A stretch of 64,000 nucleotides of DNA from Chloroflexaceae bacterium (GCA_034435975.1 DAOTWD010000003.1:70167-134166); one strand, 5' to 3'; shown: positions 23,094 to 38,933, counted from the first letter of the stretch. Translations and numbers: made by a program. The notes: a model not told the origin generated them from the letters alone.

Positions 23094-23636
23094 ATGAGAC
23101 GACAAGATACAGGCCAATCTATTGTGGAGATGGCATTTGTGATGCCACTGCTGGTTGTTCTTGTGTTTGGCATTATTGACCTCGGCTGGTACATTTTTGG
23201 CTATGCAACCGTGTATCAGGCGGCACGCAATGGTGCCGAAACAGCTTCAAAGTTGCCGCCTTTCGCCGAGTGGATTGAAGCCAGGGGGATGGATAGTTCT
23301 GATCCTTGTATGAATACCATCAGAACCCAGGTGCAATCACAGGCACTTATTTTTTTTGATGATATCTGGGAACACACCACCGTCTCTTATCCGAATGGTG
23401 CAGCGTCGCGCAATCTCTTTGATCGCGGGCCAATCCAGGTAAGTATCAAGTATACGATCGAACCACTGACGCCGCTATGGGGATTTATTCCTTTTGGTAA
23501 TGATGGTAAATTAACGGTCAGTGTGACGACACGCCGCTCGCTGCAAGGCCTTGGTAATCGGCCTGGTAGTCAGGGCGAAGTGACCGAGGATGATGCTATT
23601 CCCAATGGGATCGCCTGTATCCTGCCAGACAAGTAA
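23094..23636 (+). CDS. TadE-like (pseudopilin-type) pilus assembly protein
   Basis: N-terminus RRQDTGQSIVEMAFVMPLLVVLVFGIIDLGWY matches the TadE/Flp-type class III prepilin-like signal (G/xxxxE + hydrophobic helix). The ATG at 23094 follows GGGAG. Confidence 0.75.
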   Translation: MRRQDTGQSIVEMAFVMPLLVVLVFGIIDLGWYIFGYATVYQAARNGAETASKLPPFAEWIEARGMDSSDPCMNTIRTQVQSQALIFFDDIWEHTTVSYPNGAASRNLFDRGPIQVSIKYTIEPLTPLWGFIPFGNDGKLTVSVTTRRSLQGLGNRPGSQGEVTEDDAIPNGIACILPDK

Positions 23637-23647
23637 GAAAAGCGAGG

Positions 23648-24178
23648 ATGATCATGCGTAATCATAACCGAACAAAAGGCCAGGCACTCGTGGAATTTGC
23701 CCTGGCTTCAACGCTCATCTTTTTTCTGTTGGCGGCTGCAGTCGATCTAGGGTTAATGTTTTTTACGATGCAAGGCTTGCGGAATGCTGCACAGGAGGGG
23801 GCGTTCTTTGGCAGCTTCCCGGTGGTATATGGTGATGTTCCTGATAGGATCTGGATTAACGAGAAAGAGATTAGAGCGCGTGTGCGAAATGAGTCGGGAT
23901 CCAGCGGGATAGGGATTTATAACCTGACCACGTTATCCGATGATCAGATTAAGATCGAGCTGCTGAAAGATGACGATTTTGATGGGCGCGTATCGGGCGG
24001 CGATCCACCATGTACTGAACAAGATATGTATACGGCCAGGCACTGTTATATTCGAGTACAAGTCAGCTACGATTACAATATGTTTTTCCCGTTAGCCCCG
24101 GTGTTTGGTAATACCGTTACACTGCGTGCTGATTCTATTCTGAAAATTCGTAGTGATATGCTGATATTTCGTCAGTAG
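23648..24178 (+). CDS. TadE-like pilus assembly protein
   Basis: N-terminus NRTKGQALVEFALASTLIFFLLAAAVDLGLMF has the G/QALVEF processing-type motif. The start may be the ATG at 23654. Confidence 0.75.
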   Translation: MIMRNHNRTKGQALVEFALASTLIFFLLAAAVDLGLMFFTMQGLRNAAQEGAFFGSFPVVYGDVPDRIWINEKEIRARVRNESGSSGIGIYNLTTLSDDQIKIELLKDDDFDGRVSGGDPPCTEQDMYTARHCYIRVQVSYDYNMFFPLAPVFGNTVTLRADSILKIRSDMLIFRQ

Positions 24179-24441
24179 ATTTATTAATAACATTATATTG
24201 TTTTCTCTCGCTGGTAAGTACCTACTCTGGCTACGATCATACCCTCGGTTGATCAGTACCCGTTCCGGTGAGGTGGACAAGAGTCTTTCCCAACCTGGCG
24301 TTTCTATGGGAGGCATGGGACGTACCCTGCACTGGCGAAGGTTCCCTGGAACGGGTATGTTGAGCATATGCAGCATTGAGTCGCTCACAGTTGTATTGCG
24401 CACATATAATCATCGGTCATAATAAACGGAGGAGGAATAGA

Positions 24442-27075
24442 ATGAAAGATCGTAAGCAGCAAAAGCCCACTCTGATGCGGCGACGTACTCGTGGTCAGAG
24501 TATCCCGCTTATTGCGCTTCTTATTGTGGTTTTGTTTGCAATGGTCGGGCTGGCGGTCGATGTTGGCAATACCTATGCGGAACAACGCAAAGCGGTCAAT
24601 GCTACCAATGCTGCCGCTATTGCGGGTATGGAGCGCTATATTGAGAGCAGCAGCGGCACCGTCCGTGATGCAGACATCAAACAGGCGGTTGAAGCGGCGC
24701 TGCGTGCAAATGGTATTAATCTGGATAGCGACAAGCTTCGGTATCGTGCATACTACTTACAAACTAATGGCGATCCTGTCAGTGGTTGCTCTGAGGTTGG
24801 TACATGTGGTGCCAATGCACCATTGAATGTAGGATATATTCAGGTAGAACTATCAGGTACGGTTGATACATTCTTTGCGCGTGTAGTCAATCAAGATACG
24901 TTGCCGGTCAGTACTGATGCTTTTGCTATGCGTTGTCCATATGGTAGCGGTGTGTATCCGATTGCTGTCAACCAGAATACGCTTCACAGTGATCTTTCTT
25001 TTCGTGATCCTAATCCCAGTGGATTACCCTACGATGATGAAGGGAATCTCATCTTTGGGTATCTGAAGCAGGGCGAGTTGCGAGGGTTGACATGGCGTCG
25101 GTTGTTTCTCCGCAACAGTGCGAACCGGAGTGACTTTGGTTGGGTGCGCTGGCTACCCGAGGGTGGTTCCGAAGAAAATCTCGTCACGATGTTGAGCGGT
25201 GATGGCAGCCTGGCACGAGGGTTTCAAGAAGTAACCTTTACCTCTGGTGGAGCGTCGCGCCGCCCGGTTGGCTGGCAAGAGCCGGCTGGCTATCCCGAAA
25301 AGCCGCAACAGCTCAGTGTCGGCGATGTCATTTATGGCAATGATCCGTTTGCGGGCAATAGTCGCGTTCAGAGCTTGCTCGATGGTCACAAGATCGATAA
25401 GAATAGCCCTACCCGCGGGACGGTGATGATCTTGCCCATCTTTGATAAGGCTACCATCTCCACTGACCGTGACGCCGGGTATCTGATCAGTGGGTTTGGC
25501 AATTTTATGGTGGCTGGTTATGGTCGTAATGGACTGGGTGATGATTATATTGACCTGATTGCGCTGGGGAATGTCGATCACTCCTCCGCCTGTCTGACAG
25601 CTCCGGTACAAACGGGGGTGATTGGTTTACAGGGTGATATTTCGTTCTTGCCACAGTGGCGAACGTCATCTCGAGATTACACCCCAATCCGGTTTGTAGT
25701 AGTTATGGACGTGTCTGGCTCTATGAACTGGAATTTTGATGGTACTGGTAGTGGTGGGAGACAGTGCGGGTATACCGACAAAGACAATGTTAATCAGGCT
25801 TTCTGTAATAGTGCTGAGTCGGCCTATGAAACGAAAGAAGAGCGGCGTATTTACGTAACACGTAAGTCACTGGAATACCTGATCAGTCTGCTGTATATTG
25901 AAGGCAATGATTCCGTCGATCCCAATCAGGTAGGCCGACCGTATGACCAGATGGCTATCCTGACATATAATGATGAATTCATCAATGGTGGAACTGCTTT
26001 TCAAAGACGAGATTTTCCCACTGTTTCAATGACAGAGTTCTCGAGTGATAAAGAAACGCTGATCAAGTATGCCCGTGAATCAGGAGCTTTTCGTAACTGG
26101 CAAAACTACCTTACAAGAGGTGGTACGAATACCGCTGCCGGCTTGTATGAAGCCAATCGGCTCTTGTCTGGCAATAACCGGGTGACCCATAACGGACGTA
26201 CATATGACTATAAGACTGTGATCATTCTGATCACTGATGGTGTCGCCAACGTGTTGTTTGATCCTGACCATCCTACTCGCGCCGGATTTAATAACAACAT
26301 GCACGATTTCTTTCCGACAGGATCTGAATGTCGTTGTCACGCGCTTCCGCCAGCCTATCAGGCACCGGCTGGTTGTGAGCGGGCGTTGAACATTGACGAG
26401 AAAGCAGATTGTCATATCAACAGCAAAGTGGGGGTATCACCGCCTGCTGGCAGAGTCCATGCAGATGGCAAAGTTACATCGAATCGCCTGAGCCCTTTGA
26501 CCGGTACCAGGGTATTTAATCGGCCCATTACAGAAATGATCGAACAGGCCAGCCTGATCAAGGGGAACGGGCATGAGATATTTGTAGTGGCAATATCTCA
26601 ATTTGAATCACTCGGTTTAAGCAATGTAGCATCAGGATCGCAGAACTATATATCCGTCAGGCACGCGGATCAACTCGATGGGGCGTTCAAGGATATCTTT
26701 GATCGATCCTTTTCAAACATGTGTATTCCTAATAGTATGCATGGTATGCAAGACAGGATACCCCCCGGTGGTGTATTCCACGGTGGAAGAGTCTATCTCG
26801 ACCCGGTTCCTTCAGAGAAATATAGGAATGGAACGGCCATTCAGCACGATACGATAACAGGCAAACTTTCTTATCGGTTTGATGACATTCCGCCCGGCCA
26901 GTATGCTGTCACCGCAGAGTTGTATTATACGCATCCAGATGATGAAGATACAACTCCGCGTAAGTATGTGATCCATGATGCGCTTAACGTCACCCTCAAG
27001 GAAACAAAGAACTTTGGGTATCAGGAACAGGATATTCAAATGGATCTGGCAGATCCCCTATGTCCTGAACTATAA
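24442..27075 (+). CDS. giant TadG-like protein with a von Willebrand factor A domain
   Basis: TadG-type N-terminus (RGQSIPLIALLIVVLFAMVGLAVDVGNTYAEQRKAVNATNAAAIAG). vWA MIDAS motif VVVMDVSGSMNW, with later TRGGTNTAAGL and ILITDGVAN. The ATG at 24442 follows GGAGGAGG. Confidence 0.8.
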   Translation: MKDRKQQKPTLMRRRTRGQSIPLIALLIVVLFAMVGLAVDVGNTYAEQRKAVNATNAAAIAGMERYIESSSGTVRDADIKQAVEAALRANGINLDSDKLRYRAYYLQTNGDPVSGCSEVGTCGANAPLNVGYIQVELSGTVDTFFARVVNQDTLPVSTDAFAMRCPYGSGVYPIAVNQNTLHSDLSFRDPNPSGLPYDDEGNLIFGYLKQGELRGLTWRRLFLRNSANRSDFGWVRWLPEGGSEENLVTMLSGDGSLARGFQEVTFTSGGASRRPVGWQEPAGYPEKPQQLSVGDVIYGNDPFAGNSRVQSLLDGHKIDKNSPTRGTVMILPIFDKATISTDRDAGYLISGFGNFMVAGYGRNGLGDDYIDLIALGNVDHSSACLTAPVQTGVIGLQGDISFLPQWRTSSRDYTPIRFVVVMDVSGSMNWNFDGTGSGGRQCGYTDKDNVNQAFCNSAESAYETKEERRIYVTRKSLEYLISLLYIEGNDSVDPNQVGRPYDQMAILTYNDEFINGGTAFQRRDFPTVSMTEFSSDKETLIKYARESGAFRNWQNYLTRGGTNTAAGLYEANRLLSGNNRVTHNGRTYDYKTVIILITDGVANVLFDPDHPTRAGFNNNMHDFFPTGSECRCHALPPAYQAPAGCERALNIDEKADCHINSKVGVSPPAGRVHADGKVTSNRLSPLTGTRVFNRPITEMIEQASLIKGNGHEIFVVAISQFESLGLSNVASGSQNYISVRHADQLDGAFKDIFDRSFSNMCIPNSMHGMQDRIPPGGVFHGGRVYLDPVPSEKYRNGTAIQHDTITGKLSYRFDDIPPGQYAVTAELYYTHPDDEDTTPRKYVIHDALNVTLKETKNFGYQEQDIQMDLADPLCPEL

Positions 27076-27163
27076 GACTCGGTGGTCAGGGGTCAGGGCC
27101 GATCAGGTTCTGTCCCGACTACACATTACTGCATGATATAGCAGTCCTGAGGAAGTCGTGTGC

Positions 27164-27224
27164 AACCGGAGTCCCGGCTTTCGCCTGGACAGAAGCCAGA
27201 ACCCAGGATAAAGCCGGGACTCTG
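27164..27224. repeat. dispersed hairpin repeat, family A, copy 2 (best-preserved)
   Basis: AACCGGAGTCCCGGCTTTCGCCTGGACAGAAGCCAGAACCCAGGATAAAGCCGGGACTCTG. The outer stem GGAGTCCCGGCTTT / AAAGCCGGGACTCT pairs along its whole 14-nt length (one G:U wobble, otherwise Watson-Crick), and the inner stem is CCTGG/CCAGG. Confidence 0.8.
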
Positions 27225-27612
27225 ATGTACAATGGAGAATGGGCTTGCTATATGTGGCGGAGTGTACCCGTAAACTGACAGGCAGCAGTTGTCAAAATGA
27301 CAACGCATGATACGTCAACCTGCGGGCAAGCCACATTTGCCAACCTTTAACCTCATATCACGCTCACAAACCGTTGGGTCTGTTAGTATGTGCTGCATGA
27401 CAGTGGTGCCTCTACAGCAAGAGCTATACCATAATGGGTGAGTAGCGTGTGGTCACTACCTGGCATAGCAACTCCCACAGGGCGAGTTGTGATACACACG
27501 ATTCTTAAAAGAGATGTACCTCCCAGCAGTTCTGGCTTCTTTCGACTTCCATCCTTAACAGGTGCAGGTTCGTTATAATGAAGCCGAACCGGGTATAACA
27601 CGGAGCTTTCCG

Positions 27613-30117
27613 ATGGTAAAACAAACTTTTATACGACAGTGTGGTACAGTGGTTGCGCTGTTTAGCATCTGGGTACTTATGATCGGCTTGCTGCCTACAG
27701 TACCGGTCATCGCCAACCAGCCCGTGAGTCAACCTCTGGATACAACGATGGAGAACTTTGCGGGTGGTATTTTTGAACGGACTACCATCAGTGCTACTGG
27801 TGATGGTGCCGTGGAATTAATGCGTGCTGGCAGGTTGCGGCGCTGGCAGGATGCTCCTTTCACTCTGCCTGAGAGTCTGGCAGAACAAGGTGTGGTAGCG
27901 CTGGGCGAGCGGCTGTATGTGATTGGCGGTAGTACTGACCCTGGTGCCGAAACAGGAGGTGGTTCAAGCAAAGTCTATTGGACAGAGATCGATCCAGCCC
28001 AGGGCCGTCCCAAAGATGCTGACCAACCCTGGAAGACGGTCGAACTGCCGACGGTTAAAACCAGTGATCGGTGTGAAACACCGGTGGCCGCACTCTCCCG
28101 TGCCGCAGTAGCGGCGGTGAAGGACGGGGGGCCACGTGGAACGAGTAATACCGGCACGCTGTATGTCATTGGCGGTCGAGTGGCACCTGCTCCCTGCCCG
28201 ATCCCTACTCTCTCTAGCAACGTGGTACACATTGGGCGCGTTAACGCCGAGGGTGCCATTAGCTGGTCAGAAGGTTCAGAATTACCGAATGGCCTGGAAT
28301 CGGCAACCGCGACCAGTATTACCATTAATAATCGGACATTCATTTATGTCTTCGGTGGCCTGGAATACCGCATTAGTCCGATTACTGGTGGGCTACAGAT
28401 TATCGAGTCGCGTACCGTGTATTATGCCGAGGTGAATAAGGCTGATGGTAGTCTGGGCAGTTGGAACATCGGGCCAGATATCCCCCTGGTCGGTGATGTG
28501 CCTGGCCTGTGGAATGCCACGGCAGTGCCGGTGGTGGCCCAGAATGGTAACAGTGCGATCTATCTGATGGGTGGTCAGACCCGGTTGAGTACACAGAGCG
28601 GCCAGGGAGCGGAATATAATCCCCGTGTCTTTCGGGCGATGATCAGCAATGATGGCACTCTTACCTGGGATACAGAGCCAGGACGCCTACAAAACGGTGG
28701 TAGTTCACCTGTGTCGTTCGGTCCTCGCATCGGTTTGTCGGGGGTTGTGCATGCGGGTAAGTTGTATCTCATCGGCGGTGCGGCGAGTGAGACAGCAAAT
28801 GGCGAGAGTGCTGTCTTCACGGCGATTATCAACGATGACCTGACATTGCAGAATTTTGGAACAGATACGCTTCCGCAGTTTTTTGTCGAGAGTAGCAACA
28901 TCTTGCCTTTCTGGCGTACATTTCACGCCAGTACCTTCGTGCCCGCCATACCAACTCCAGAAGACCCCGCAGCTGTCTATATCTTCACCATTGCTGGCAC
29001 CGGCCCGAATCCTGCTGGTACCGTTAGTGTGCGCAATACCATGTTCAGGGGGCGTGTGGGCGGTAAGGGTGATACCCAGGAGGAAGGGAATGTCGTTGAG
29101 CAGGGGTGGTATTATTCGCGGTTTCATACCACGCGTCTGTCCGATGCGCGCATTAAGCAGTTTATCTGGAACACAGAGCAGACCGATGATCAGGATATCC
29201 GGCTAGAATACCGTGTTACCAAAAATATCTGTAGCGCCGACAATCCTTTTGGTAATGCAGAGTGGAAAGCACTGGATGGGGTACCCGATAATGCCGGGAA
29301 GTTCTCAAAAACTGGTCTCAATAATCATGTATTTGAAGATCGCGGTGAAGATGAACCGGAGGCCAACTGTGTCCAGTATCGTGCATTTTTGCAACGTGGT
29401 GCAGACACAGGCACCTCACCCGCGCTGCTTGATGTGGGGATCGACGTGATTGCCAGTGGTAGTCCCGATCTGAAGGTACATACCTTGCAGGTTCTGCGGG
29501 GCGAGAACGAACGAACGTTTACCGGGCTAAATATTGCGATTATTAACCAGAACGATGTCGAGAACACCACCGAGTTGCCGCCTGGCTCGTTCTATGTTGA
29601 CCTGTGTGTGTTACAACCTGGTGAAACAACCACTCCGCCGCAATTGAGTGTGTTTCCGCTGAATCTTGATCCACCCCTGCCATGTGTTAGATCCTATGCT
29701 ATGGTTAACAGCAGCCAGGTGGGCATTGATAGACCCTATCAGATCAATCGGCGCTGGTATGATCCACATAACAATAATGCCGAACTGTCTTCGATGCAAG
29801 AAATGGAACGCTTCTTCGACAAAGTCGGCGTGTATAGGGTGTATGTCGCCGTAGACTCGCTCAACAACATTCCCGAGACATCACCTGGGGGCGAAGAGAA
29901 CAACGTCAGCGATCGATTAGAAGTTGTTATTTATCCGGCTGATGATCCAGTATGGAATCCGACGATGACTCCGCCGCCAGATGTGACTCCCGATGTTGAT
30001 ATTCCACCGGCAATTGCTACTCCAACGCCCACTTTGACTACTGTTCCAACCGTGACCCCTACTCCAACTCCAGAGGCAGGGCCACCCACCGTGTATTTGC
30101 CGATTATCAGACGTTAA
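27613..30117 (+). CDS. secreted or membrane-anchored Kelch-repeat (beta-propeller) protein with a Pro/Thr-rich C-terminal tail
   Basis: N-terminal signal anchor (VVALFSIWVLMIGLLPTV). Repeated Kelch-type strands: LYVIGG, LYVIGGRVAP, IYVFGGLEY, IYLMGGQT, LYLIGGAAS. The tail is ...TPTPTLTTVPTVTPTPTPEAGPPTVYLPIIRR. The ATG at 27613 follows GGAG. Confidence 0.75.
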   Translation: MVKQTFIRQCGTVVALFSIWVLMIGLLPTVPVIANQPVSQPLDTTMENFAGGIFERTTISATGDGAVELMRAGRLRRWQDAPFTLPESLAEQGVVALGERLYVIGGSTDPGAETGGGSSKVYWTEIDPAQGRPKDADQPWKTVELPTVKTSDRCETPVAALSRAAVAAVKDGGPRGTSNTGTLYVIGGRVAPAPCPIPTLSSNVVHIGRVNAEGAISWSEGSELPNGLESATATSITINNRTFIYVFGGLEYRISPITGGLQIIESRTVYYAEVNKADGSLGSWNIGPDIPLVGDVPGLWNATAVPVVAQNGNSAIYLMGGQTRLSTQSGQGAEYNPRVFRAMISNDGTLTWDTEPGRLQNGGSSPVSFGPRIGLSGVVHAGKLYLIGGAASETANGESAVFTAIINDDLTLQNFGTDTLPQFFVESSNILPFWRTFHASTFVPAIPTPEDPAAVYIFTIAGTGPNPAGTVSVRNTMFRGRVGGKGDTQEEGNVVEQGWYYSRFHTTRLSDARIKQFIWNTEQTDDQDIRLEYRVTKNICSADNPFGNAEWKALDGVPDNAGKFSKTGLNNHVFEDRGEDEPEANCVQYRAFLQRGADTGTSPALLDVGIDVIASGSPDLKVHTLQVLRGENERTFTGLNIAIINQNDVENTTELPPGSFYVDLCVLQPGETTTPPQLSVFPLNLDPPLPCVRSYAMVNSSQVGIDRPYQINRRWYDPHNNNAELSSMQEMERFFDKVGVYRVYVAVDSLNNIPETSPGGEENNVSDRLEVVIYPADDPVWNPTMTPPPDVTPDVDIPPAIATPTPTLTTVPTVTPTPTPEAGPPTVYLPIIRR

Positions 30118-30150
30118 CACGGGTATGGCAGGGCGATGACATGGCGTACA

Positions 30151-30185
30151 CAGCAGGGAAACGGGCAGACCGTATCTCCCTGCTG
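30151..30185 (+). terminator. hairpin 34 nt after the Kelch gene stop (CAGCAGGGA...TCCCTGCTG with inner ACGG/CCGT)
   Basis: The 9-bp outer stem and 4-bp inner stem were read directly. Only a weak T-rich tail follows (ctttgtt). Confidence 0.3.
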
Positions 30186-30374
30186 CGTGCTGTCGTGCTT
30201 TGTTCAAGAAGTATATCATTAGAGCTAGAAATACCAGCAGTATGGGTTGTAGCACGGTGTAGAGGGCTTATGAACAGGAACGTAGAGCAGCCTATCCCAA
30301 TTGACAATGCCTTCAGGCGTGCTCTATTGTCATTGACGCAGCGAACGTAGTATTACAACGAGACTTCACCACAG

Positions 30375-30460
30375 CCGGAGCGCGGGGGCTACAGGCCTCT
30401 GCGCATGGTTCCTTTGTAGTGTGGCGGGTTGAAGCCGCACCACGCCTTCCTACCCAGGGG
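30375..30460 (+). repeat. dispersed intergenic repeat, family B, copy 3 (divergent)
   Basis: Shares the blocks GGCT.CAGGCC.C and CACCAC.CC...GGG with copies 1 and 2, but is more diverged. Confidence 0.4.
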
Positions 30461-30587
30461 ATGTCTCGTTGCAGTAATAGAGCGATGATTGGCTTTGATT
30501 AGGATACGGTCTTGAGACGAACCTGCTATGCTCCGGCACGTTATCACCATACATTGCGCTAAATATGATCCATTGGTAACAGGCGTG

Positions 30588-30596
30588 TGCTATAAT
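30588..30596 (+). promoter_or_regulatory. extended -10 promoter element TGCTATAAT upstream of cpaB
   Basis: TGnTATAAT read directly, 62 nt before the cpaB ATG. ATAATATGG is directly repeated 13 nt downstream. Confidence 0.35.
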
Positions 30597-30657
30597 ATGG
30601 CACATAATATGGCTGGTGGCCCGTTGGGTTCGCATTGATAAGGAAAGAAGCCTCATT

Positions 30658-31626
30658 ATGAGACGTGGTGGCATGGTTATACTTTTCATTGGTGTCATTG
30701 TGGCGCTGATTGTTGCAGGCTTCCTGATCTTTTTTTTCCAGATGAATAATTTTGGCGGTGGAGAAATCACTCCGGTTCCTACGGAAGATCCGGGCATTGT
30801 GGTGGTGGTGGCACGGGTTGATATTCCTGCCAATACCCTGATTGATGATCGGGATACATTACTGGACGAGCGGACTATTCCAACCAACAATTTTTCTCCT
30901 CAATATCTGACCAATATGGCAGATGTCGAGGGACGACTGGCAGTAAACGTTATTCGGGCAGGCGATCCTATTCGTCGCTCTGATCTAACCACTCCCGGTC
31001 TGTCTCAGCAGATCCCAACCGCCGAGCCAGATCGGCCGCGAACCAAAGCCTATTCGCTCCTGGTCAACAGTCTGTCGGGCGTAGCCGATCAGATTCGCCC
31101 CAACGATTTTGTCGATGTGGTTGCGACCTTCTCTATTCCACGCCGGCTTACGTATCCGACAGGAAGGGATGACCAGGGCCAGATAGTATATGAACACTTC
31201 ACTGAGATCTTCCAGTCTACTAAAACCATCGTCCAACAGGTGCAGGTTATGCGCATCCTTCGTCGGAGGGTTAATGCCGAGGGTACGCCCGTGGCTCAAC
31301 AAGAACAGCCCACAGCCCCGACAGGTGAACCAGGCCAGACAACTCAAGGTGACTTTGTTACCGAAGGAGACTGGTTGCTCGTGCTGGCGGTTAATAATCA
31401 AGAGGCTGAATTGATTGACTTTGCCCGTAATACCAACGCTGCTATTACCTTGGTATTGCGCGGGGCTGGTGATGGAGACTTTGAACAAACGATCGGTGCG
31501 TCATTTGATTTGCTTGTTGGTGAATTTGGTGTGCCATTACCGCAGCCAGTACGCGGACGGGTACATGGTGAAGAGGTATTTCTTCCTGATCCGACCTCAA
31601 CCCCGGCCCCAACGCGGGTGCCGTAG
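30658..31626 (+). CDS. cpaB: Flp pilus assembly protein CpaB (RcpC-like, SAF domain)
   Basis: N-terminal TM (MVILFIGVIVALIVAGFLIFFF). SAF-like segment (LAVNVIRAGDPIRRSDL). C-terminal beta-clip region with LVLAVNNQEAELIDFARNTNAAITLVLRG. Confidence 0.75.
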   Translation: MRRGGMVILFIGVIVALIVAGFLIFFFQMNNFGGGEITPVPTEDPGIVVVVARVDIPANTLIDDRDTLLDERTIPTNNFSPQYLTNMADVEGRLAVNVIRAGDPIRRSDLTTPGLSQQIPTAEPDRPRTKAYSLLVNSLSGVADQIRPNDFVDVVATFSIPRRLTYPTGRDDQGQIVYEHFTEIFQSTKTIVQQVQVMRILRRRVNAEGTPVAQQEQPTAPTGEPGQTTQGDFVTEGDWLLVLAVNNQEAELIDFARNTNAAITLVLRGAGDGDFEQTIGASFDLLVGEFGVPLPQPVRGRVHGEEVFLPDPTSTPAPTRVP

Positions 31627-31680
31627 CAGGCTGGTTGCGTCTATACGGAGAGCAACGCTGATGCTTGTACAATAGTAGCG

Positions 31681-31735
31681 ACGATCATGCATGCTTGAAC
31701 CGGTCAACTGCACTGCTTCAAGCATGCATGATCGT
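31681..31735. promoter_or_regulatory. 19-bp perfect inverted repeat with a 17-nt loop between cpaB and tadZ
   Basis: ACGATCATGCATGCTTGAA (31681-31699) and TTCAAGCATGCATGATCGT (31717-31735) are exact reverse complements. Confidence 0.5.
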
Positions 31736-31880
31736 ATACTCAATATGCATGTGGGGATTGTGCGCACCCGTTGCTTATATAGGGTAGTGTTGTGAATGCG
31801 AATGTAGATCGATTTTTTGCTTGAGCTATGCGCTGATTGGGTACGCAACTGCCGAACCATGCGAGATGAGGAGTTAATCC

Positions 31881-33161
31881 ATGACAGAAAGCGACAAGAT
31901 CCGGGTGATGATTGTAGACGATATTGTAGATACCCGTGATCAGATCGAGAAACTGTTGTTTTTCGAGAAAGATATCGAAGTTATTGCCAAAGCCAGCAAT
32001 GGCCGTGAGGCAGTAGCGATGGCTAAACAGTATAAACCAGATGTTATCCTGATGGACATTAATATGCCCGAAATGGATGGCATCGCGGCCACGGAAGCGA
32101 TCATGGCCCAGGACTCAGCGGTGCAGGTCATCATTATGAGCGTGCAGGGTGAGACCGACTATCTGCGCCGGGCTATGCTGGCCGGGGCACGGGAGTTTTT
32201 GACCAAGCCGATCAGTGCAGATGATCTGTATAAATCGATTCGTCATGTTTATCGTCTGGCAGCTACTCGACCACGTGTTGCACCACAGGCAAGCAGTGCT
32301 ACTGATAATGGGAGGAGTGACAGCGGCACTCAGGGGCAGATCATCGCAGTGTTCAGTCCCAAAGGCGGAGTTGGCACCTCTACGATCGCCGCCAATTTAG
32401 CGGTAGCGTTACGGCAGTTAACACACAAGAAGGTGGTTCTGGTTGATGGGAACTTGATTTTTGGCGACCTGAACGTTATTCTGAATTTAATCTCGAAAAA
32501 GACCATAGTCGAACTGGCCCAACGGGTAGATGATCTTGACCGCGATTTACTGAATGATGTACTGGCGACACATACCTCCCAGATTAAAGTATTACTTGCT
32601 CCGCCCAATCCACAAACGGGTGAACTGGTGACAGCAGATCACTTACGAACTATACTAGAGTTGATACGCCGCGAATTTGATTATGTGGTGGTAGATACGC
32701 AGTCGTCGTTTCAAGATCGCGCTCTGGCTGTGTTAGATCTCGCGGATCGGATTGTGACCTTGATGACACTGGAAATGCCGTGCATTAAGAATATCAAGCT
32801 CTTCCTGGAGGTTGCCGAGCTACTAGAATATTCGAAAGAAAAGATTATGCTGGTCCTCAACAAGGCTGATAATCGCATGGGCTTTAGTGTCAAAGATGTG
32901 CAAAATAATATACAACACGAGGTTATGTTGCAGATTGCGAATGCGCCCCAGGAGGTAACGTATTCAATCAATGAGGGGGTACCGCTGGTGATTTCCAGGC
33001 GTACGCATCCAACATCGCGAGATATCTTTACACTGGCCGGGCGATTGTGCAATGTCTCGAAAGGGGTTACGGATGTACCGCCACCGTCGGATGGGCGGAC
33101 ACCTCAGAAGAAGGCAGGCCAGAGCCGTGGTTTATTTGGTCGGTTGTTGGCACGACGATAG
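31881..33161 (+). CDS. tadZ: response-regulator receiver fused to a CpaE/TadZ ParA/MinD-type ATPase
   Basis: Canonical REC (MIVDDIVD, VILMDINMPEMDG, IIMSVQG, FLTKP), then a deviant Walker A IIAVFSPKGGVGTSTIAANLA. The C-terminal SRGLFGRLLARR is amphipathic and basic. Confidence 0.85.
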   Translation: MTESDKIRVMIVDDIVDTRDQIEKLLFFEKDIEVIAKASNGREAVAMAKQYKPDVILMDINMPEMDGIAATEAIMAQDSAVQVIIMSVQGETDYLRRAMLAGAREFLTKPISADDLYKSIRHVYRLAATRPRVAPQASSATDNGRSDSGTQGQIIAVFSPKGGVGTSTIAANLAVALRQLTHKKVVLVDGNLIFGDLNVILNLISKKTIVELAQRVDDLDRDLLNDVLATHTSQIKVLLAPPNPQTGELVTADHLRTILELIRREFDYVVVDTQSSFQDRALAVLDLADRIVTLMTLEMPCIKNIKLFLEVAELLEYSKEKIMLVLNKADNRMGFSVKDVQNNIQHEVMLQIANAPQEVTYSINEGVPLVISRRTHPTSRDIFTLAGRLCNVSKGVTDVPPPSDGRTPQKKAGQSRGLFGRLLARR

Positions 33162-33190
33162 CAAGTTTTTCATATAGGCGGAGGCATAGT

Positions 33191-34600
33191 ATGTCGTTGT
33201 TGAAACGCATTGGTGGTGCAACTCCGGGAACAGAAGAGGCAACAGGGACACAACGTCCAGTGGTGACGAGTACTCTGCGTCGAGAAGAGGTGCGTCCATC
33301 TGGCTCTGGAAGTGGACGTGAACAGGAAGATACGTTCACTGAGATCAAGATGCGTGTGCAATCCAAGTTGATTAGTGAACTCGATCCTAACCTGGATCTT
33401 TCAAATACGACACGTGTGCGACGCCAGGTTGAGGAGGTCTTTAACTCGATCCTAGATGGCGAGAGCATTGTCTTGAGTCGTGCTGAGCGGGCGCGCATGT
33501 TTGAAGCTATAGCGGCTGACATTCTGGGGTATGGGCCATTGCAGCAATTTCTGGCAGATGATGAAATCAGTGAAATTATGGTGAATGGCCCACGGCAGAT
33601 CTATATTGAAAAGCGTGGTAAGCTGATCAAAACCGATGTCGTGTTTTATAATGACGACCATGTGTTGCGCATTATCGATCGGATTGTTGCTCCACTGGGG
33701 CGACGTATTGATGAGTCATCGCCGATGGTCGATGCACGTTTGCCCGATGGTAGTCGTGTCAATGCGATTATCCGCCCGTTGTCGCTGATCGGGCCCGTGA
33801 TCACGATCCGTAAATTTCGCAAGGAATCCTTTACGGTGGCCGATCTGGTGCGCTTTGGCACGTTCACTCAGGAGATGGTCGAGTTTCTCGCGGCATGTGT
33901 CCGTGCTCGGTTGAATATTGTCGTATCTGGTGGGACTGGCTCAGGCAAAACAACCACCCTGAATGTCCTTTCATCGTTTATCCCTGAAGATGAACGGATC
34001 ATCACCGTTGAAAACGCAGCGGAGTTACAATTACGCCAGGAACATGTGATAACACTCGAATCACGTCCGCCAAATATTGAAGGCCGTGGTGAAGTCACTA
34101 TTCGCGATCTGGTGATTAACTGTTTGCGTATGCGCCCGGAACGAATCGTGGTCGGTGAGTGTCGTGGCGGTGAAACGCTTGACATGCTCCAGGCAATGAA
34201 TACCGGCCACGATGGTTCTATGACTACGGTGCATGCGAACTCACCTCGTGATAGTATTGCCCGTATCGAGACAATGTGTTTGATGGCCGGGATGGATTTG
34301 CCCTCACGCGCTATTCGTGAACAGATTGCCGCAGCGGTTGATGTGATTGTGCAGCAGGGCCGTATGAAAGACGGTACGCGCAAAGTTACGGCGATCACCG
34401 AGGTGCAAGGCATGGAAGGTGATGTGGTGGTTCTACAGGACATCTTCGTGTTTGAGCAAACGGGCATTGATGAAAATGGTAAGATTGTAGGAACATTACG
34501 TCCAACCGGTGTCCGACCGAAGTTTGTTGAGAAGTTTGAGGCACTCAATATTTATCTACCACCAAATGTTTTTGGCTATTCGGCGGAACGGTTCTTCTAG
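33191..34600 (+). CDS. cpaF: CpaF/TadA type II/IV secretion-family pilus assembly ATPase
   Basis: Walker A VSGGTGSGKTTTLNVL, Asp box, Walker B RIVVGECRGGE, His box MNTGHDGSMTTVHAN. The ATG at 33191 follows GGAGG. Confidence 0.9.
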   Translation: MSLLKRIGGATPGTEEATGTQRPVVTSTLRREEVRPSGSGSGREQEDTFTEIKMRVQSKLISELDPNLDLSNTTRVRRQVEEVFNSILDGESIVLSRAERARMFEAIAADILGYGPLQQFLADDEISEIMVNGPRQIYIEKRGKLIKTDVVFYNDDHVLRIIDRIVAPLGRRIDESSPMVDARLPDGSRVNAIIRPLSLIGPVITIRKFRKESFTVADLVRFGTFTQEMVEFLAACVRARLNIVVSGGTGSGKTTTLNVLSSFIPEDERIITVENAAELQLRQEHVITLESRPPNIEGRGEVTIRDLVINCLRMRPERIVVGECRGGETLDMLQAMNTGHDGSMTTVHANSPRDSIARIETMCLMAGMDLPSRAIREQIAAAVDVIVQQGRMKDGTRKVTAITEVQGMEGDVVVLQDIFVFEQTGIDENGKIVGTLRPTGVRPKFVEKFEALNIYLPPNVFGYSAERFF

Positions 34601-34610
34601 GAATGGTGGA

Positions 34611-35597
34611 ATGCAAAACATGCTTGGGTCTGACATACTGCCATTTGCGGCAGCCGGGGTTGTCTTTCTCGTGATCATTCTCGTCTCCGGGGTAGTAGCC
34701 CGAACTATAGGACGTGATGATGTCTCGGATCGTCTCTCGCAGTATGCGAGGCGCGGTGATGCGGAAGCAGACGTTAATCCACAGCAGGTGTTTGCTCGTA
34801 TCGATGCAGTTGTCCGCAAGAGTGAACGGGGAAACAATCTGGCGCGCGACCTGGCACGTGCTGACCTGAAATGGAAGGTATCAGAGTTTATTGGCCTGAA
34901 GTTGCTGTCAGCCTTAGCCGGAGCGGGCATGGGTGCTTTTGTTGGACGTGCATCTCCACAGGCAATGTTGATCTCAGCACTGGTGGGTGCGGTGCTGCTA
35001 TCATTTGCGCCAAACGTCTACATGTCTATCCGTGCTAGTAGGCGCGTAAAGTCCTTTAATAACCAGTTGGGTGATACGATTATTTTAATGGCCAATGCTT
35101 TGCGTAGTGGGTATAGCTTTTTGCAGACCCTGGATATGGTCTCGAAAGAGGCTCCGCCGCCGGTCTCAACCGAGTTTAATCGCGTTGTCCAGGAGGTTGG
35201 TCTCGGCCGCACCACCGAGGAGGCACTCGCCAATCTGTTGCGTCGCGTACCATCAGATGACCTCGAATTGCTTATCACGGCAGTGAATATACAGCATGAA
35301 GTTGGAGGTAATCTGGCACAAATTCTGGATACCATTGGTCATACGATTCGTGAGCGGGTACGTATCAAGGGTGAAATCAAAACGTTGACGGCTCAGGGAC
35401 GTATTTCGGCCTATGTGATTACAGGGTTACCCGTTGCCCTGGCTATTTTTATTAGTGTCATCAATCCTGAGTATATGGCTCCTCTGTTTAGCTTTGGTAT
35501 GCCCCCCGAACACTGGTGTTGCTTACCGGTTACGGCAGCGTTCATGATTTTGATTGGTTATCTTGCCATTATGAAGATCGTTGATATTGAGGTGTGA
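34611..35597 (+). CDS. tadB: TadB-like type II secretion system F-domain membrane protein
   Basis: T2SSF-type region (LGDTIILMANALRSGYSFLQTLDMVSKEAPPPVSTEFNRVVQEVGLGRTTEEAL) flanked by TM segments. The ATG at 34611 lies just after the cpaF stop. Confidence 0.8.
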   Translation: MQNMLGSDILPFAAAGVVFLVIILVSGVVARTIGRDDVSDRLSQYARRGDAEADVNPQQVFARIDAVVRKSERGNNLARDLARADLKWKVSEFIGLKLLSALAGAGMGAFVGRASPQAMLISALVGAVLLSFAPNVYMSIRASRRVKSFNNQLGDTIILMANALRSGYSFLQTLDMVSKEAPPPVSTEFNRVVQEVGLGRTTEEALANLLRRVPSDDLELLITAVNIQHEVGGNLAQILDTIGHTIRERVRIKGEIKTLTAQGRISAYVITGLPVALAIFISVINPEYMAPLFSFGMPPEHWCCLPVTAAFMILIGYLAIMKIVDIEV

Positions 35598-35606
35598 GGT
35601 ACAGGT

Positions 35607-36533
35607 ATGAATCCTATGCTTATTTTGATCATCATGGGCATACTGTTTCTCTTCAGTGTCTTACTAATTATCTTTGGCCTGACCCGGTGGAAACAGGCCG
35701 ATATGATTAGTGATCGCCTCAACCAGTTTACCGAGCGCGTCATGACGCTCGAAGAACTGGAGTTGCAACAACCATTCCATCAACGTGTCCTCGTGCCAAT
35801 GGGACGTTCTATTTTAACAACGCTCGGTAACTATGGGCCGAAACAGAGTGCCGAACGGCTCAAGAGAAATCTCCAGCAAGCTGGCAACCCTGGAGGTATT
35901 ACGCCCACCATGTTTATCGGGTTGCGGGTCGCTCTGGCGATATTGCTCTGTGGTATTTTTGCCTTTGTCACCTTCACCACGATGGAGTTCTTGCGAGCAG
36001 TGTTGTACAGCGCCTTTGCGCTGGTTCTGGGGTATATGTTACCAGTGGTCTGGCTGGGGCGTCAGATTGCCAGGCGTAAACATAATATCGTTAAGGCTCT
36101 CCCTGATGCATTAGATCTGATAACCATCAGCGTTGAGGCTGGTCTGGCCTTTGACTCGGCTATCCAGCGGGTGACTGATAAGTGGGATGATGAACTGAGT
36201 AAAGAGCTTGCACGGGTATTGGCCGATATGCGCCTGGGGCGATCACGCCGTGAAGCTCTGCGCGATATGGCGACACGGACAGGAGTCGATGACGTGCAGA
36301 CCTTTGTAGCCGCCATTATTCAGGCCGATCAACTGGGTGTACCGTTATCCAAGATCCTGCGTATTCAATCCGATCAGTTGCGGATCCGGCGCCGTCAGCG
36401 GGCAGAAGAAGCAGCCCAGAAGGCACCGATCAAAATGCTCTTCCCTATGGTATTCTTGATCTTTCCGGCGCTGTTTGTGGTTATTCTTGGCCCGGCCGTA
36501 CCACGGATTATGTCGTCGCTGGGTAGTTTGTAG
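35607..36533 (+). CDS. tadC: TadC-like type II secretion system F-domain membrane protein
   Basis: T2SSF region (LPDALDLITISVEAGLAFDSAIQRVTDKWDDELSKELARVLADMRLGRSRREAL) with flanking TM helices. Confidence 0.8.
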   Translation: MNPMLILIIMGILFLFSVLLIIFGLTRWKQADMISDRLNQFTERVMTLEELELQQPFHQRVLVPMGRSILTTLGNYGPKQSAERLKRNLQQAGNPGGITPTMFIGLRVALAILLCGIFAFVTFTTMEFLRAVLYSAFALVLGYMLPVVWLGRQIARRKHNIVKALPDALDLITISVEAGLAFDSAIQRVTDKWDDELSKELARVLADMRLGRSRREALRDMATRTGVDDVQTFVAAIIQADQLGVPLSKILRIQSDQLRIRRRQRAEEAAQKAPIKMLFPMVFLIFPALFVVILGPAVPRIMSSLGSL

Positions 36534-36573
36534 TATGTCTCTCAAATGATAGCTGATCCCAGAACTCTGGCCT

Positions 36574-36948
36574 ATGTCTATACTCGTTATGAATGAAACC
36601 CGCCAGTGTCGATTAGCAGACCGTTGTCAACTGGCGCGTAGCTTCTGGTCGCGTGGATTAGGATTGATGGGGCGTGCCAGCCTTGAGCCTGGTGCGGGAT
36701 TGTTGATCTATCCTGAGTGGAGTATTCATACCTTTTTTATGCGCTTTCCGATCGATGTAGTGTTTGTTGATCGGTACGATACTGTGATTGGTATACGTCA
36801 TGCAATGCCCCCCTATCGTCCCTATGCGGGTGCCTGGGGAGCGCGCTATGTGCTGGAATTGCCGGCTGGAGTACTGGCAGCAACCGCAACCTGTGTTGGT
36901 GATCAATTGACAGTAACACCCTCCCCACATGTATCGGGGCGGCAATGA
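36574..36948 (+). CDS. DUF192 (COG1430) family protein
   Basis: ARSFWSRGLGLMGRASLEPGAGLLIYPEWSIHTFFMRFPIDVVFVD resembles the DUF192 core as I recall it. This family is common at the end of Tad loci. Confidence 0.65.
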   Translation: MSILVMNETRQCRLADRCQLARSFWSRGLGLMGRASLEPGAGLLIYPEWSIHTFFMRFPIDVVFVDRYDTVIGIRHAMPPYRPYAGAWGARYVLELPAGVLAATATCVGDQLTVTPSPHVSGRQ

Positions 36949-38933
36949 ATTCTGGTGGTTTTTGCTCTCGGCTCCGGTTTTCTGGCGCATGGCTTTCCAG
37001 TTCGATTCTGGCACCCGCATTGTGCTTTCTGCTCAGTCTCTCCGGTTATCTCACCACCCGCACAGAGGTGCATATGTTCGATGCACTCTCGTATGTGCTG
37101 GATGTCGATCGTAAACCCTGGCACGAACTGTTTCATCCGCATCATCTGGCGTATGGGCCACTGGGCGCACTGATACGCAGTGGGTTGCATACACTGGGTT
37201 GGCATATAAGCGCACGTGTGCCGATGCAAGTTACGAATGCCATAGCGGGTGCGCTCGGCGTGGCGCTGTTTTTTGTCGTTGTGCGCGTTGTCACCCATCG
37301 CACCGATCTCGCATGGTGTGGAGCGCTCTTGCTCGGTGCCAGTTATGCCTATTGGTATTATGCCATTGAGATCGAGGTATATACCATTGCAACCGTCTTT
37401 CTCGTTGTGTGCCTATGGTACATCGTGAGCTTACTTCGGACACCGACGCCTGGTATATGTGCAGGTCTCGGCGTTGCGCAAGGGCTGGCAGTATTATTTC
37501 ATCAGACCAATATCCTGTTGTCGGTGCCGGTACTGGTAGCATACATACTGGTACGACCTGGCATTGGTCGCCGCTGGGTCGTGGCAGGACTGGCATATAC
37601 GCTGCCACTCGGTATCATTGTGGCTGGTAGTTACCTGCTGGTCGGATTTGGGATCAGTGGCTTTCGTTCGTGGGCACAGTTTATGGCCTGGATAACGGCC
37701 TATGCTCGTACCGGTTGGTGGGGTGGGGCGATTACGATCGATAACTGGGTTGATCTAGGTACGGGATTGGCCAACACAGTTGCTCAACCAGGGGGGGCGC
37801 TCCTGGGGTTGCTGCTGCTGGGATTGCTGATATGCTATCTGCGCCATCTGGTGCAGGGTTACCGTCGGCTTGTGCTATGTCTGAGTGCGTGGTTGGTGAC
37901 CTATGGAGCCTTTTTTTTCTGGTGGGAACCGGATAATATCGAGTTCTGGATTGCCAGCTTGCCCCCGCTGTTATTGCTGCTCTTGCTCGGCCTGCAGATG
38001 GGTGGCCCGGTCTGGCATCCTGGTGTCTGGGTAGCGCTGGTGCTGGGTCTGACCATGCTGGCGATGAACTATGATTCGATTACCCGGCGTGGGCGCATGG
38101 AGTATGACTGGCAGCGCCGCATTGCAGCGGCCCTGTCAGTCCGCAGTGCGCCTGGCGATTTGCTACTGGTGCCAGATGGCTTGCAGGAACTCTATTTGCC
38201 CTATTACGAGCAACGTGATAATGTATTGTCGTTGAACCAGGCCCTGTTTGAACACGAAGGTGATTGGGCTGCCGCCTGTCGTGCCGTTCGCCAACGCATT
38301 ACAATAACACGAGAGCATGGCTTTGCCGTATGGATCGATGACGTGGTGCTGTATCCTGGCAGCGATCGTGATGAGACGCGCTTGCTGGAGCGGTTTCGGC
38401 TGACGCCCCAGGCAGTGACACAGTGCTTTACGCCCTATATGCCAGAGCTAGATCCGCACCTTGTTGCCGGGTATGGGATCTATCATGCGCTGCCGGCAGC
38501 CCAGACGTTACTGGAGAGATCAGGGTGGGATTTTGCCCATAGCCGCCAGGGGTGGCGTGCCAGCAATATCGAACATGAGCGTTTCGCAGCAGGTTGGGAA
38601 TTTATTCCTGGTATTGATCCGCAGTTGAAAAGTCCGCCGCTACACATTGATACCCGCCGCTACAATATCCTGGAGATCGACCTGGCGGCTGCCACCCAGG
38701 ATCGGGACGCGCAACTCTTTTTTTACGATGAAGCCGGTCAGGTTGCGGAGGAGCGTTCGATCCGCTGGACATTGCCACCGGGCGATGCAGTGATAACCTA
38801 TCGGCTGGAACTGGAAGGGCAACCAGGCTGGCACGGAATTGTCACCGGGTTGCGGCTCGATCCGGTGAGCGTCGGTGATGGCCGCAGCGTGCGTGTGGAA
38901 CGGGTGCGTCTGGTGCCAGTCGTTGAAGAATGA
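36945..38933 (+). CDS. large polytopic membrane protein, possibly a GT-C-type glycosyltransferase (function uncertain)
   Basis: About 10 or more TM segments in the N-terminal 400 aa, with acidic residues in the first loop (FDALSYVLDVD), then a ~260-aa soluble C-terminal domain. The start overlaps the DUF192 stop (ATGA). Confidence 0.6.
   Translation: MNSGGFCSRLRFSGAWLSSSILAPALCFLLSLSGYLTTRTEVHMFDALSYVLDVDRKPWHELFHPHHLAYGPLGALIRSGLHTLGWHISARVPMQVTNAIAGALGVALFFVVVRVVTHRTDLAWCGALLLGASYAYWYYAIEIEVYTIATVFLVVCLWYIVSLLRTPTPGICAGLGVAQGLAVLFHQTNILLSVPVLVAYILVRPGIGRRWVVAGLAYTLPLGIIVAGSYLLVGFGISGFRSWAQFMAWITAYARTGWWGGAITIDNWVDLGTGLANTVAQPGGALLGLLLLGLLICYLRHLVQGYRRLVLCLSAWLVTYGAFFFWWEPDNIEFWIASLPPLLLLLLLGLQMGGPVWHPGVWVALVLGLTMLAMNYDSITRRGRMEYDWQRRIAAALSVRSAPGDLLLVPDGLQELYLPYYEQRDNVLSLNQALFEHEGDWAAACRAVRQRITITREHGFAVWIDDVVLYPGSDRDETRLLERFRLTPQAVTQCFTPYMPELDPHLVAGYGIYHALPAAQTLLERSGWDFAHSRQGWRASNIEHERFAAGWEFIPGIDPQLKSPPLHIDTRRYNILEIDLAAATQDRDAQLFFYDEAGQVAEERSIRWTLPPGDAVITYRLELEGQPGWHGIVTGLRLDPVSVGDGRSVRVERVRLVPVVEE

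Follow-up and report, generated by a model that had tools for sequence, protein, structure and literature searches.

The canonical Tad loci are flp-tadV-rcpCAB-tadZABCDEFG of Aggregatibacter and pilA-cpaA-F of Caulobacter. The Tad loci of monoderm bacteria (Actinobacteria and Firmicutes, e.g. Bifidobacterium breve and Bulleidia extructa) are secretin-less and often have the peptidase gene apart, and their operon usually begins with flp. The locus analysed here lies at positions 23094-38933 of a stretch of 64,000 nucleotides (the window, C3:70167-134166) from G000, a hot-spring metagenome-assembled genome (MAG) of the order Chloroflexales (5.07 Mb, 191 contigs, 99% complete). It encodes, in order, two TadE-like proteins, TadG with a vWA domain, a Kelch protein, CpaB, a TadZ with a receiver domain (REC-TadZ), CpaF, TadB, TadC, a DUF192 protein and a GT-C/PMT_2-like protein (Table 1). 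It is concluded, with a probability of about 0.85, that this locus encodes the assembly machinery and the tip components of a Tad (type IVc) pilus of the monoderm type, lacking a secretin and of a kind typical of Chloroflexales, and that the other parts of this pilus are scattered on the chromosome.

Modular Tad genes are already known in this order. In Chloroflexales, including the cultured Roseiflexus castenholzii, Chloroflexus aggregans and 'Ca. Viridilinea mediisalina', they form the separate modules rcpC-tadZABC, tadEEG and flp, type IVa pilus (T4aP) genes are absent, and pili seen near septa by cryo-electron tomography were proposed to drive gliding (Gaisin et al. 2020, PMC7332563). G000 shares with these strains the possession of Tad-type genes only and their modular arrangement, but it is uncultured and belongs to a different family of the order. 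Furthermore, the published gene sets make no mention of Kelch, DUF192 or GT-C genes as members, of a DegS-like kinase gene beside flp, or of the location of the peptidase gene (PMC7332563). In the TXSScan Tad model, tadV is treated as a loner gene and multi-locus Tad systems are called very rare (Denise et al. 2019, PMC6668835). A dispersed Tad machine has also been reported for Bdellovibrio bacteriovorus, in which PilD cleaves Flp1 (2026 preprint, bioRxiv 10.64898/2026.07.08.737194). The likeness to G000 consists in a dispersed but complete Tad system, a PilD-type peptidase in place of TadV, and kinase genes near tad genes; however, Bdellovibrio, a diderm, has both a secretin and T4aP, and its TadZ lacks a receiver, whereas the TadZ of G000 has a canonical one.

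The G000 system has in common with the canonical tad/cpa loci CpaF/TadA, paired TadB/TadC, TadZ/CpaE, RcpC/CpaB, TadE/F/G-like pilins and a short Flp with the G/xxxxEY motif. It differs from them in the unlinked flp and peptidase genes, in the PilD-type peptidase with its A24_N_bact domain, in a TadZ receiver that looks phosphorylatable, and in the extra Kelch, DUF192 and GT-C genes. No secretin (RcpA/CpaC) was found; TadD and RcpB were not searched for. The Tad loci of Bulleidia extructa and other monoderms are secretin-less like that of G000 and have no reported Kelch or GT-C gene. Monoderm Tad operons of Firmicutes have been reported to carry a DUF192 gene at their 3' end (PMC12786226). An earlier note on this DNA had described the locus as being of unusual composition. 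This was an overstatement, as the eleven-gene layout without flp is the norm in three families and its modules had been described before (PMC7332563). The system is an ordinary dispersed Tad machine, typical of its lineage and outlined before, and what is modestly new is the conservation of a kinase-flp gene pair and of the Kelch, DUF192 and GT-C genes.

Gene calls were based on a listing of open reading frames (ORFs) and on Pfam, with NCBIfam for CpaB and CpaF, and they reproduced the gene order and coordinates given in the earlier note. The search for pilin, peptidase and secretin genes combined profile searches across the whole genome with a genome-wide scan for the class III motif. Among all ORFs of at least 20 residues on both strands of every intergenic gap of the locus, none had a class III signal or a Flp-like hydrophobic core, and the motif scan found no Flp-type ORF on contig C3. 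Neither the gap ORFs nor the whole-genome profiles placed a Flp, A24 peptidase or secretin gene in the window, in line with the absence of all three from the locus that the note had reported. Neither a conventional flp-tadV pair immediately beyond the window nor an overlooked small pilin ORF inside the locus was found. The two long gaps in the locus are due to dispersed short repeats and not to hidden genes.

The best Flp_Fap match in the genome (30.2-31.1 bits) is encoded on a different contig by flp1 (C168:24142-24303), the ORF of which spans C168:24136-24303, with the start placed at the second ATG (C168:24142) by alignment of orthologues. The Flp1 prepilin of 53 residues is made up of an 11-residue leader ending in Gly and a 42-residue mature part; the cleavage context, EEG/QGLVEY, is followed by a hydrophobic helix of 20+ residues, and the exposed C-terminal tail retains a conserved Ser. 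Flp1 is 67-94% identical across the order, where tandem duplicates are frequent. As judged by a perfect Shine-Dalgarno sequence (AAAGGAGGTGA), a promoter-like TTGAGT-17-TATACT ~50 nucleotides 5' of the gene, and a hairpin with a T-run directly 3' of the stop codon (-21 kcal/mol, z = -3.8; 0 of 200 shuffles fold as well), flp1 is predicted to be a strongly translated monocistronic unit. A second gene, flp2 (C14:156814-157038, minus strand in the extracted stretch; Flp_Fap score 20.3 bits), stands alone among housekeeping genes for NFACT, guanylate kinase and a thioredoxin-reductase-like protein. Flp2 is a paralogue conserved across the order; its leader is longer, its C-terminus carries a VWY motif, and its position -1 is Ala in the genus of G000 and Gly in most other genera.

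The genome contains a single A24 peptidase gene, which adjoins aroE on a third contig (C152:99178-99924, 248 residues). The A24_N_bact (E = 2.2e-16) and Peptidase_A24 domains of the product are those of the PilD/ComC type, and this domain content and the length rule out a TadV/CpaA-type enzyme, which has the A24 domain only and ~140-170 residues; no peptidase of the TadV type was found in the whole-genome search. One catalytic-type Asp was read from the translation in 'GAIDW' and the second in the 'GLGD' (GxGD) motif. As read from the sequence, the N-terminal domain lacks most of its Cys pairs, so that a methyltransferase activity of the enzyme is doubtful. The whole-genome search thus located both parts expected to lie elsewhere: the peptidase on C152, and a distal pilin, the first of two alternatives in the earlier note, on C168 with a paralogue on C14. 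No match to the secretin family (PF00263) was found in the 99% complete genome, nor were Omp85 and LpxC found. These absences agree with an envelope of the monoderm type, in which a secretin would not be expected.

A genome-wide scan for a G/Q..E signal followed by a hydrophobic stretch returned only Flp1, TadE1 and TadE2 as credible proteins, with TadG (G/QSIPL) and Flp2 as near variants of the motif. Since the scan yielded only these, the C152 peptidase may plausibly have five substrates, all of them Tad pilins. The G/Q cleavage context is common to Flp1, both TadE proteins and TadG, and the G/xxxxE[FM] motifs attributed earlier to the TadE-like proteins were verified (sequences in Table 1). 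Both TadE signals are of the cleavable class III type with Glu at +5, and no Flp is encoded in the locus, which would speak for the second alternative of the note, namely that an apparatus without a Flp-type major subunit polymerises the TadE-like proteins into its filament. As the distal pilin alternative holds, this idea is unnecessary, and it is now very hard to sustain. Flp, which is highly conserved and has a strong signal, is present where the machine is and disappears together with it (see below), the platform of the locus is the only one available to Flp, and TadE/F/G are modelled as tip or priming subunits in other Tad systems (PMC12075869). Moreover, the TadE-like proteins, at ~160-170 residues and with globular parts, are unlike Tad filament subunits.

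The flp1 and peptidase genes are unlinked to each other, and both lie off the contig of the locus (C168 and C152 versus C3); in G000, the contig geometry sets lower limits of ~41 kb for flp and ~74 kb for the peptidase gene on the distance from the locus. Whether the scattered parts belong together was judged from 30 further genomes of the order Chloroflexales, the families of which are labelled f1 to f4. Flp1 homologues were found in 28 of the 30 relatives, and TadC orthologues, a single-copy peptidase gene and the flp-adjacent kinase gene were each found in 27. Flp, TadC, peptidase and kinase are all missing from both genomes of the genus g20, which are 96-98% complete and have no Tad genes at all. 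In none of the 30 relatives did a Flp match lie near the orthologous TadC gene, and in the complete genome G027 the TadC, peptidase and Flp genes are at 1.58 Mb, 1.91 Mb and 4.71 Mb, respectively.

A different explanation would be that the distal Flp genes serve another apparatus or none, and that the true major pilin is an unrecognised protein. The physical separation of flp from the locus would fit this, as would a second CpaF-like ATPase of 504 residues (C1:25427-26941), the only other T2SSE ATPase in the genome, and the presence in some relatives of a further, paralogous Tad locus that has flp genes of its own alongside (G006:C56). However, the C1 ATPase cluster contains no T2SSF platform or pilin genes, which rules out a second Tad machine there, and the TadB and TadC genes of the locus, the only two T2SSF genes in the genome, form the sole platform pair. 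No paralogous Tad locus exists in G000, Flp1 and the minor pilins of the locus have exactly the same G/Q cleavage context, and the genome-wide scan offered no other candidate pilin. This explanation is hence considered improbable, though somewhat less so than the polymerisation of TadE.

Linked and unlinked layouts of flp are both known in the phylum. In a phylum-wide sample, counted by hand for flp versus TadB/C among the T2SSF matches listed (leaving aside 24 weaker T2SSF matches), 40 genomes from outside Chloroflexales have both kinds of gene; flp lies within ~12 kb of TadB/C in 24 of them and does not in the other 16, one of which is a complete genome with a separation of 1.09 Mb; among the same matches, flp was unlinked in 7 of 7 Chloroflexales. 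The two layouts coexist in one genome, G006, where, as in some other relatives, an extra paralogous Tad locus (TadC ~43% identical) has flp-flp directly upstream of tadZ (G006:C56:20000-39999). The default expectation of TXSScan, that all components occur together, does not fit the G000 system, but this concerns layout and not function.

Mapping of the locus with tblastn recovered the full eleven-gene layout in the same genus (uncultured Chloroflexales MAG L035), in three other genera of the family, and in family f4 (G027). In family f2, the eleven-gene layout is kept up to the contig end, and in family f3 the genes from CpaB through DUF192 are kept. The Kelch gene stands between TadG and CpaB in f1, f2 (a weak match) and f4, and flp is absent from all orthologous loci mapped in the four families. 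Identities to the proteins of G006 are highest for CpaF (80%), TadC (76%), TadB (72%), TadZ (70%) and DUF192 (68%), followed by GT-C (56%), CpaB (52%), TadE (45-51%), TadG (36%) and Kelch (34%). Between genera, CpaF is 73-80% identical and TadG, which is quick to diverge, 28-36%. The large and exposed TadG and Kelch proteins diverge fastest, as would be expected of surface or tip parts.

This conservation also bears on the view that the locus is no more than a remnant, in decay or silent, and that the absence of flp reflects a loss of function. The somewhat lower G+C content of its first half (0.49 versus 0.53-0.56) and the dispersed repeats in two of its gaps could be taken in that sense. Yet all eleven ORFs are intact, intact and syntenic orthologues occur in three families with 65-80% identity for the motor genes, and pili are visible on cultured members of the order in which all pilus genes are of the Tad type (PMC7332563). 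Decay or silence is therefore most unlikely.

Several points weigh against the assignment of the locus to a dispersed but complete Tad pilus. The peptidase of classical Tad systems is of the shorter TadV type, and here a PilD-type enzyme would have to cleave Flp. The score of Flp1 against PF04964 is slightly under the gathering threshold (31.1 bits, cut-off 32.2), although its orthologues in G016 and G020 pass it with 38.7 and 35.4 bits. Flp1 is the presumed major subunit, but it may instead be Flp2 that has this role. A search for RNA sequencing runs containing DNA of the locus listed none, only DNA runs from hot springs. Finally, G000 is a fragmented MAG of 191 contigs, and 'unlinked' in G000 means a minimum separation only, of ~41 kb, the large distances coming from relatives.

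Under the preferred interpretation of a dispersed Tad machine, Flp1 would be made in bulk from its own transcription unit as the filament subunit, and the PilD-type peptidase on C152 would process Flp, TadG and the two TadE proteins by cutting behind the Gly of their common G/Q motif. CpaF would power the polymerisation of Flp on the TadB/TadC platform, while REC-TadZ would position or gate the machine. The TadE/TadE/TadG-vWA tip complex, of which TadG-vWA is, by analogy, the likely backbone, would prime and cap the Flp filament, which would leave through a ring or conduit formed by CpaB outside the membrane, with no need for a secretin. The apparent anomaly of a pilus locus lacking a pilin is thereby removed, the machine being complete and merely dispersed. 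In Chloroflexales, locus-based detectors that need a linked pilin will under-call Tad systems. Tad pili, the only pilus system in these filamentous gliders, are the leading candidate for their motility. Work on cultured relatives has concrete targets in the gene of the filament, in the neighbouring kinase gene, which looks dedicated to it, and in TadZ with its seemingly phosphorylatable receiver. New accessory parts of monoderm Tad machines may be encoded by the conserved Kelch, DUF192 and GT-C genes.

Two-component control of such pili has precedents in PprAB of Pseudomonas aeruginosa, which controls Flp pili, and in PleC/PodJ of Caulobacter, which controls the pilin; in each, a kinase is tied genetically or functionally to flp/pilA expression. 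In G000, a soluble DegS-like HisKA_3 kinase of 352 residues is encoded on the flp1 strand, immediately upstream of that gene (the pair spans C168:22915-24303), and the pair is kept in three families (f1, f3 and f4). The kinase differs from the above examples in being a soluble orphan directly upstream of flp, with no response regulator gene adjoining it in G000. The receiver of TadZ has the acidic pair, acceptor Asp, Ser and Lys, as read from its sequence, and its nearest paralogues in the genome are LuxR/NarL-type regulators (35-41% identity). Receivers of the NarL/LuxR type are the class served by HisKA_3 kinases. These features are compatible with direct signalling from the kinase to TadZ, and equally with control of flp transcription via an unlinked regulator.

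The Kelch protein is modelled as a membrane-anchored, extracytoplasmic protein with a six-bladed propeller and beta-sandwich modules. The AlphaFold2 model, built from nine syntenic orthologues (a word-seeded homologue search returned only four proteins), is of moderate quality, with a predicted local distance difference test score of 67 overall and ~85-90 in the propeller. Foldseek returned generic Kelch propellers (LZTR1, KLHDC2, galactose oxidase-like) and one full-length match of 870 residues in the AlphaFold database. A PilY1-like tip adhesin, with vWA domain and beta-propeller, was considered and set aside, as no PilY1 was among the top Foldseek matches in the PDB and the AlphaFold database. 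The start of the GT-C gene overlaps the stop of the DUF192 gene, to which it is translationally coupled, and GT-C is syntenic in f1 and f4 with 47-88% identity. GT-C could be a glycosyltransferase for the pilin, given the conserved Ser in the tail of Flp1, or for the envelope.

It is tempting, though doubtful, to unite these elements in one regulon, in which the DegS-like kinase would be cognate to the TadZ receiver, the Kelch protein would be a surface or tip partner, and DUF192/GT-C would carry out a glycosylation step on the pilin or envelope. If this were true, assembly of the pilus, and hence gliding of Chloroflexales, would be gated by phosphorylation of the machine itself, beyond transcription alone, and the Kelch protein and the DUF192/GT-C pair would be new dedicated Tad accessory parts.

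Table 1. Features of the Tad locus of G000, with positions counted from the first nucleotide of the window
Feature	Position	Strand	Evidence
TadE-like minor pilin 1	23094..23636	+	Pfam TadE, E = 4e-14; class III signal DTG/QSIVEM; orthologue syntenic in relatives
TadE-like minor pilin 2	23648..24178	+	Pfam TadE, E = 2e-10; class III signal TKG/QALVEF; syntenic in relatives
TadG-like large minor pilin with vWA, 877 residues	24442..27075	+	Pfam Tad (PF13400), E = 1.7e-9, and VWA/VWA_2; signal TRG/QSIPL
Kelch protein, 834 residues	27613..30117	+	Pfam Kelch_1/2/4/6; N-terminal transmembrane helix
CpaB/RcpC, N-terminal membrane anchor	30658..31626	+	Pfam RcpC and SAF; NCBIfam TIGR03177 pilus_cpaB, 91.5 bits (cut-off 71)
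TadZ/CpaE, ParA/MinD-like ATPase fused to receiver	31881..33161	+	Pfam Response_reg, E = 4e-28, and AAA_31/ParA/CbiA
CpaF/TadA motor ATPase	33191..34600	+	Pfam T2SSE (PF00437), E = 2.6e-65
TadB platform protein	34611..35597	+	Pfam T2SSF (PF00482), E = 3.4e-21
TadC platform protein	35607..36533	+	Pfam T2SSF (PF00482), E = 3.8e-19
DUF192 protein, 3' operon member	36574..36948	+	Pfam DUF192, E = 1.2e-20; after TadC in f1, f2, f3 and f4
Polytopic GT-C/PMT_2-like glycosyltransferase	36945..38933	+	Pfam PMT_2, E = 9.6e-7, 29.6 bits (cut-off 26.1); at least 9 hydrophobic segments
Dispersed intergenic repeat copy, ~135-150 nucleotides, non-gene	30340..30491	.	blastn of gap versus genome

The top NCBIfam match of CpaF is a TadA-family ATPase model with 343 bits, under the equivalog cut-off of 373. 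The locus is flanked by housekeeping genes, namely NUDIX, HAD and DprA genes upstream and SpoIIM-like, amino-acid kinase and UbiA genes downstream. The G+C content of 0.49 was measured over window positions 24000-28000, i.e. TadG and the start of the Kelch gene, and coincides with the two fastest-evolving genes, the values of 0.53-0.56 being those of the flanks.

The repeat between the Kelch and CpaB genes makes up most of their 540-nucleotide gap and has 101 further blastn matches in the genome, 40 of them of at least 100 nucleotides, on 54 contigs. A second, different dispersed repeat of ~90-100 nucleotides, with ~19 further matches, lies between TadG and the Kelch gene (27154-27254). An Rfam scan of positions 20000-42000 at E values up to 0.1 gave no match, the second repeat included, which rules out known RNAs as an explanation of the long gaps. 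One copy of the 30340-30491 repeat was also seen ~150 nucleotides from flp2 on C14.

In relatives, flp occurs as two or three near-identical tandem copies, often on contigs of <2.1 kb or at contig ends (L012-L015). Assemblies may break at the flp array, so that the flp copy number in MAGs, G000 included, may be underestimated. The cluster around the second CpaF-like ATPase (C1:23767-32652) further encodes an AAA protein, a DUF6812 protein, a TPR protein, a CAAX protease and a MiaB-like radical SAM enzyme.

In G000, genes for a GT2 glycosyltransferase and a divergent protein of 546 residues (C168:20203-22742) directly precede the kinase-flp pair. The latter has no Pfam family and is duplicated in relatives, and a relationship to the GT-C gene of the operon was discarded, as no similarity was found. 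A link of some kind between the GT2/546-residue genes and the operon GT-C is possible. The two genes are present upstream of kinase-flp in G000, G008 and G027 and are absent from this position in four other genomes examined.

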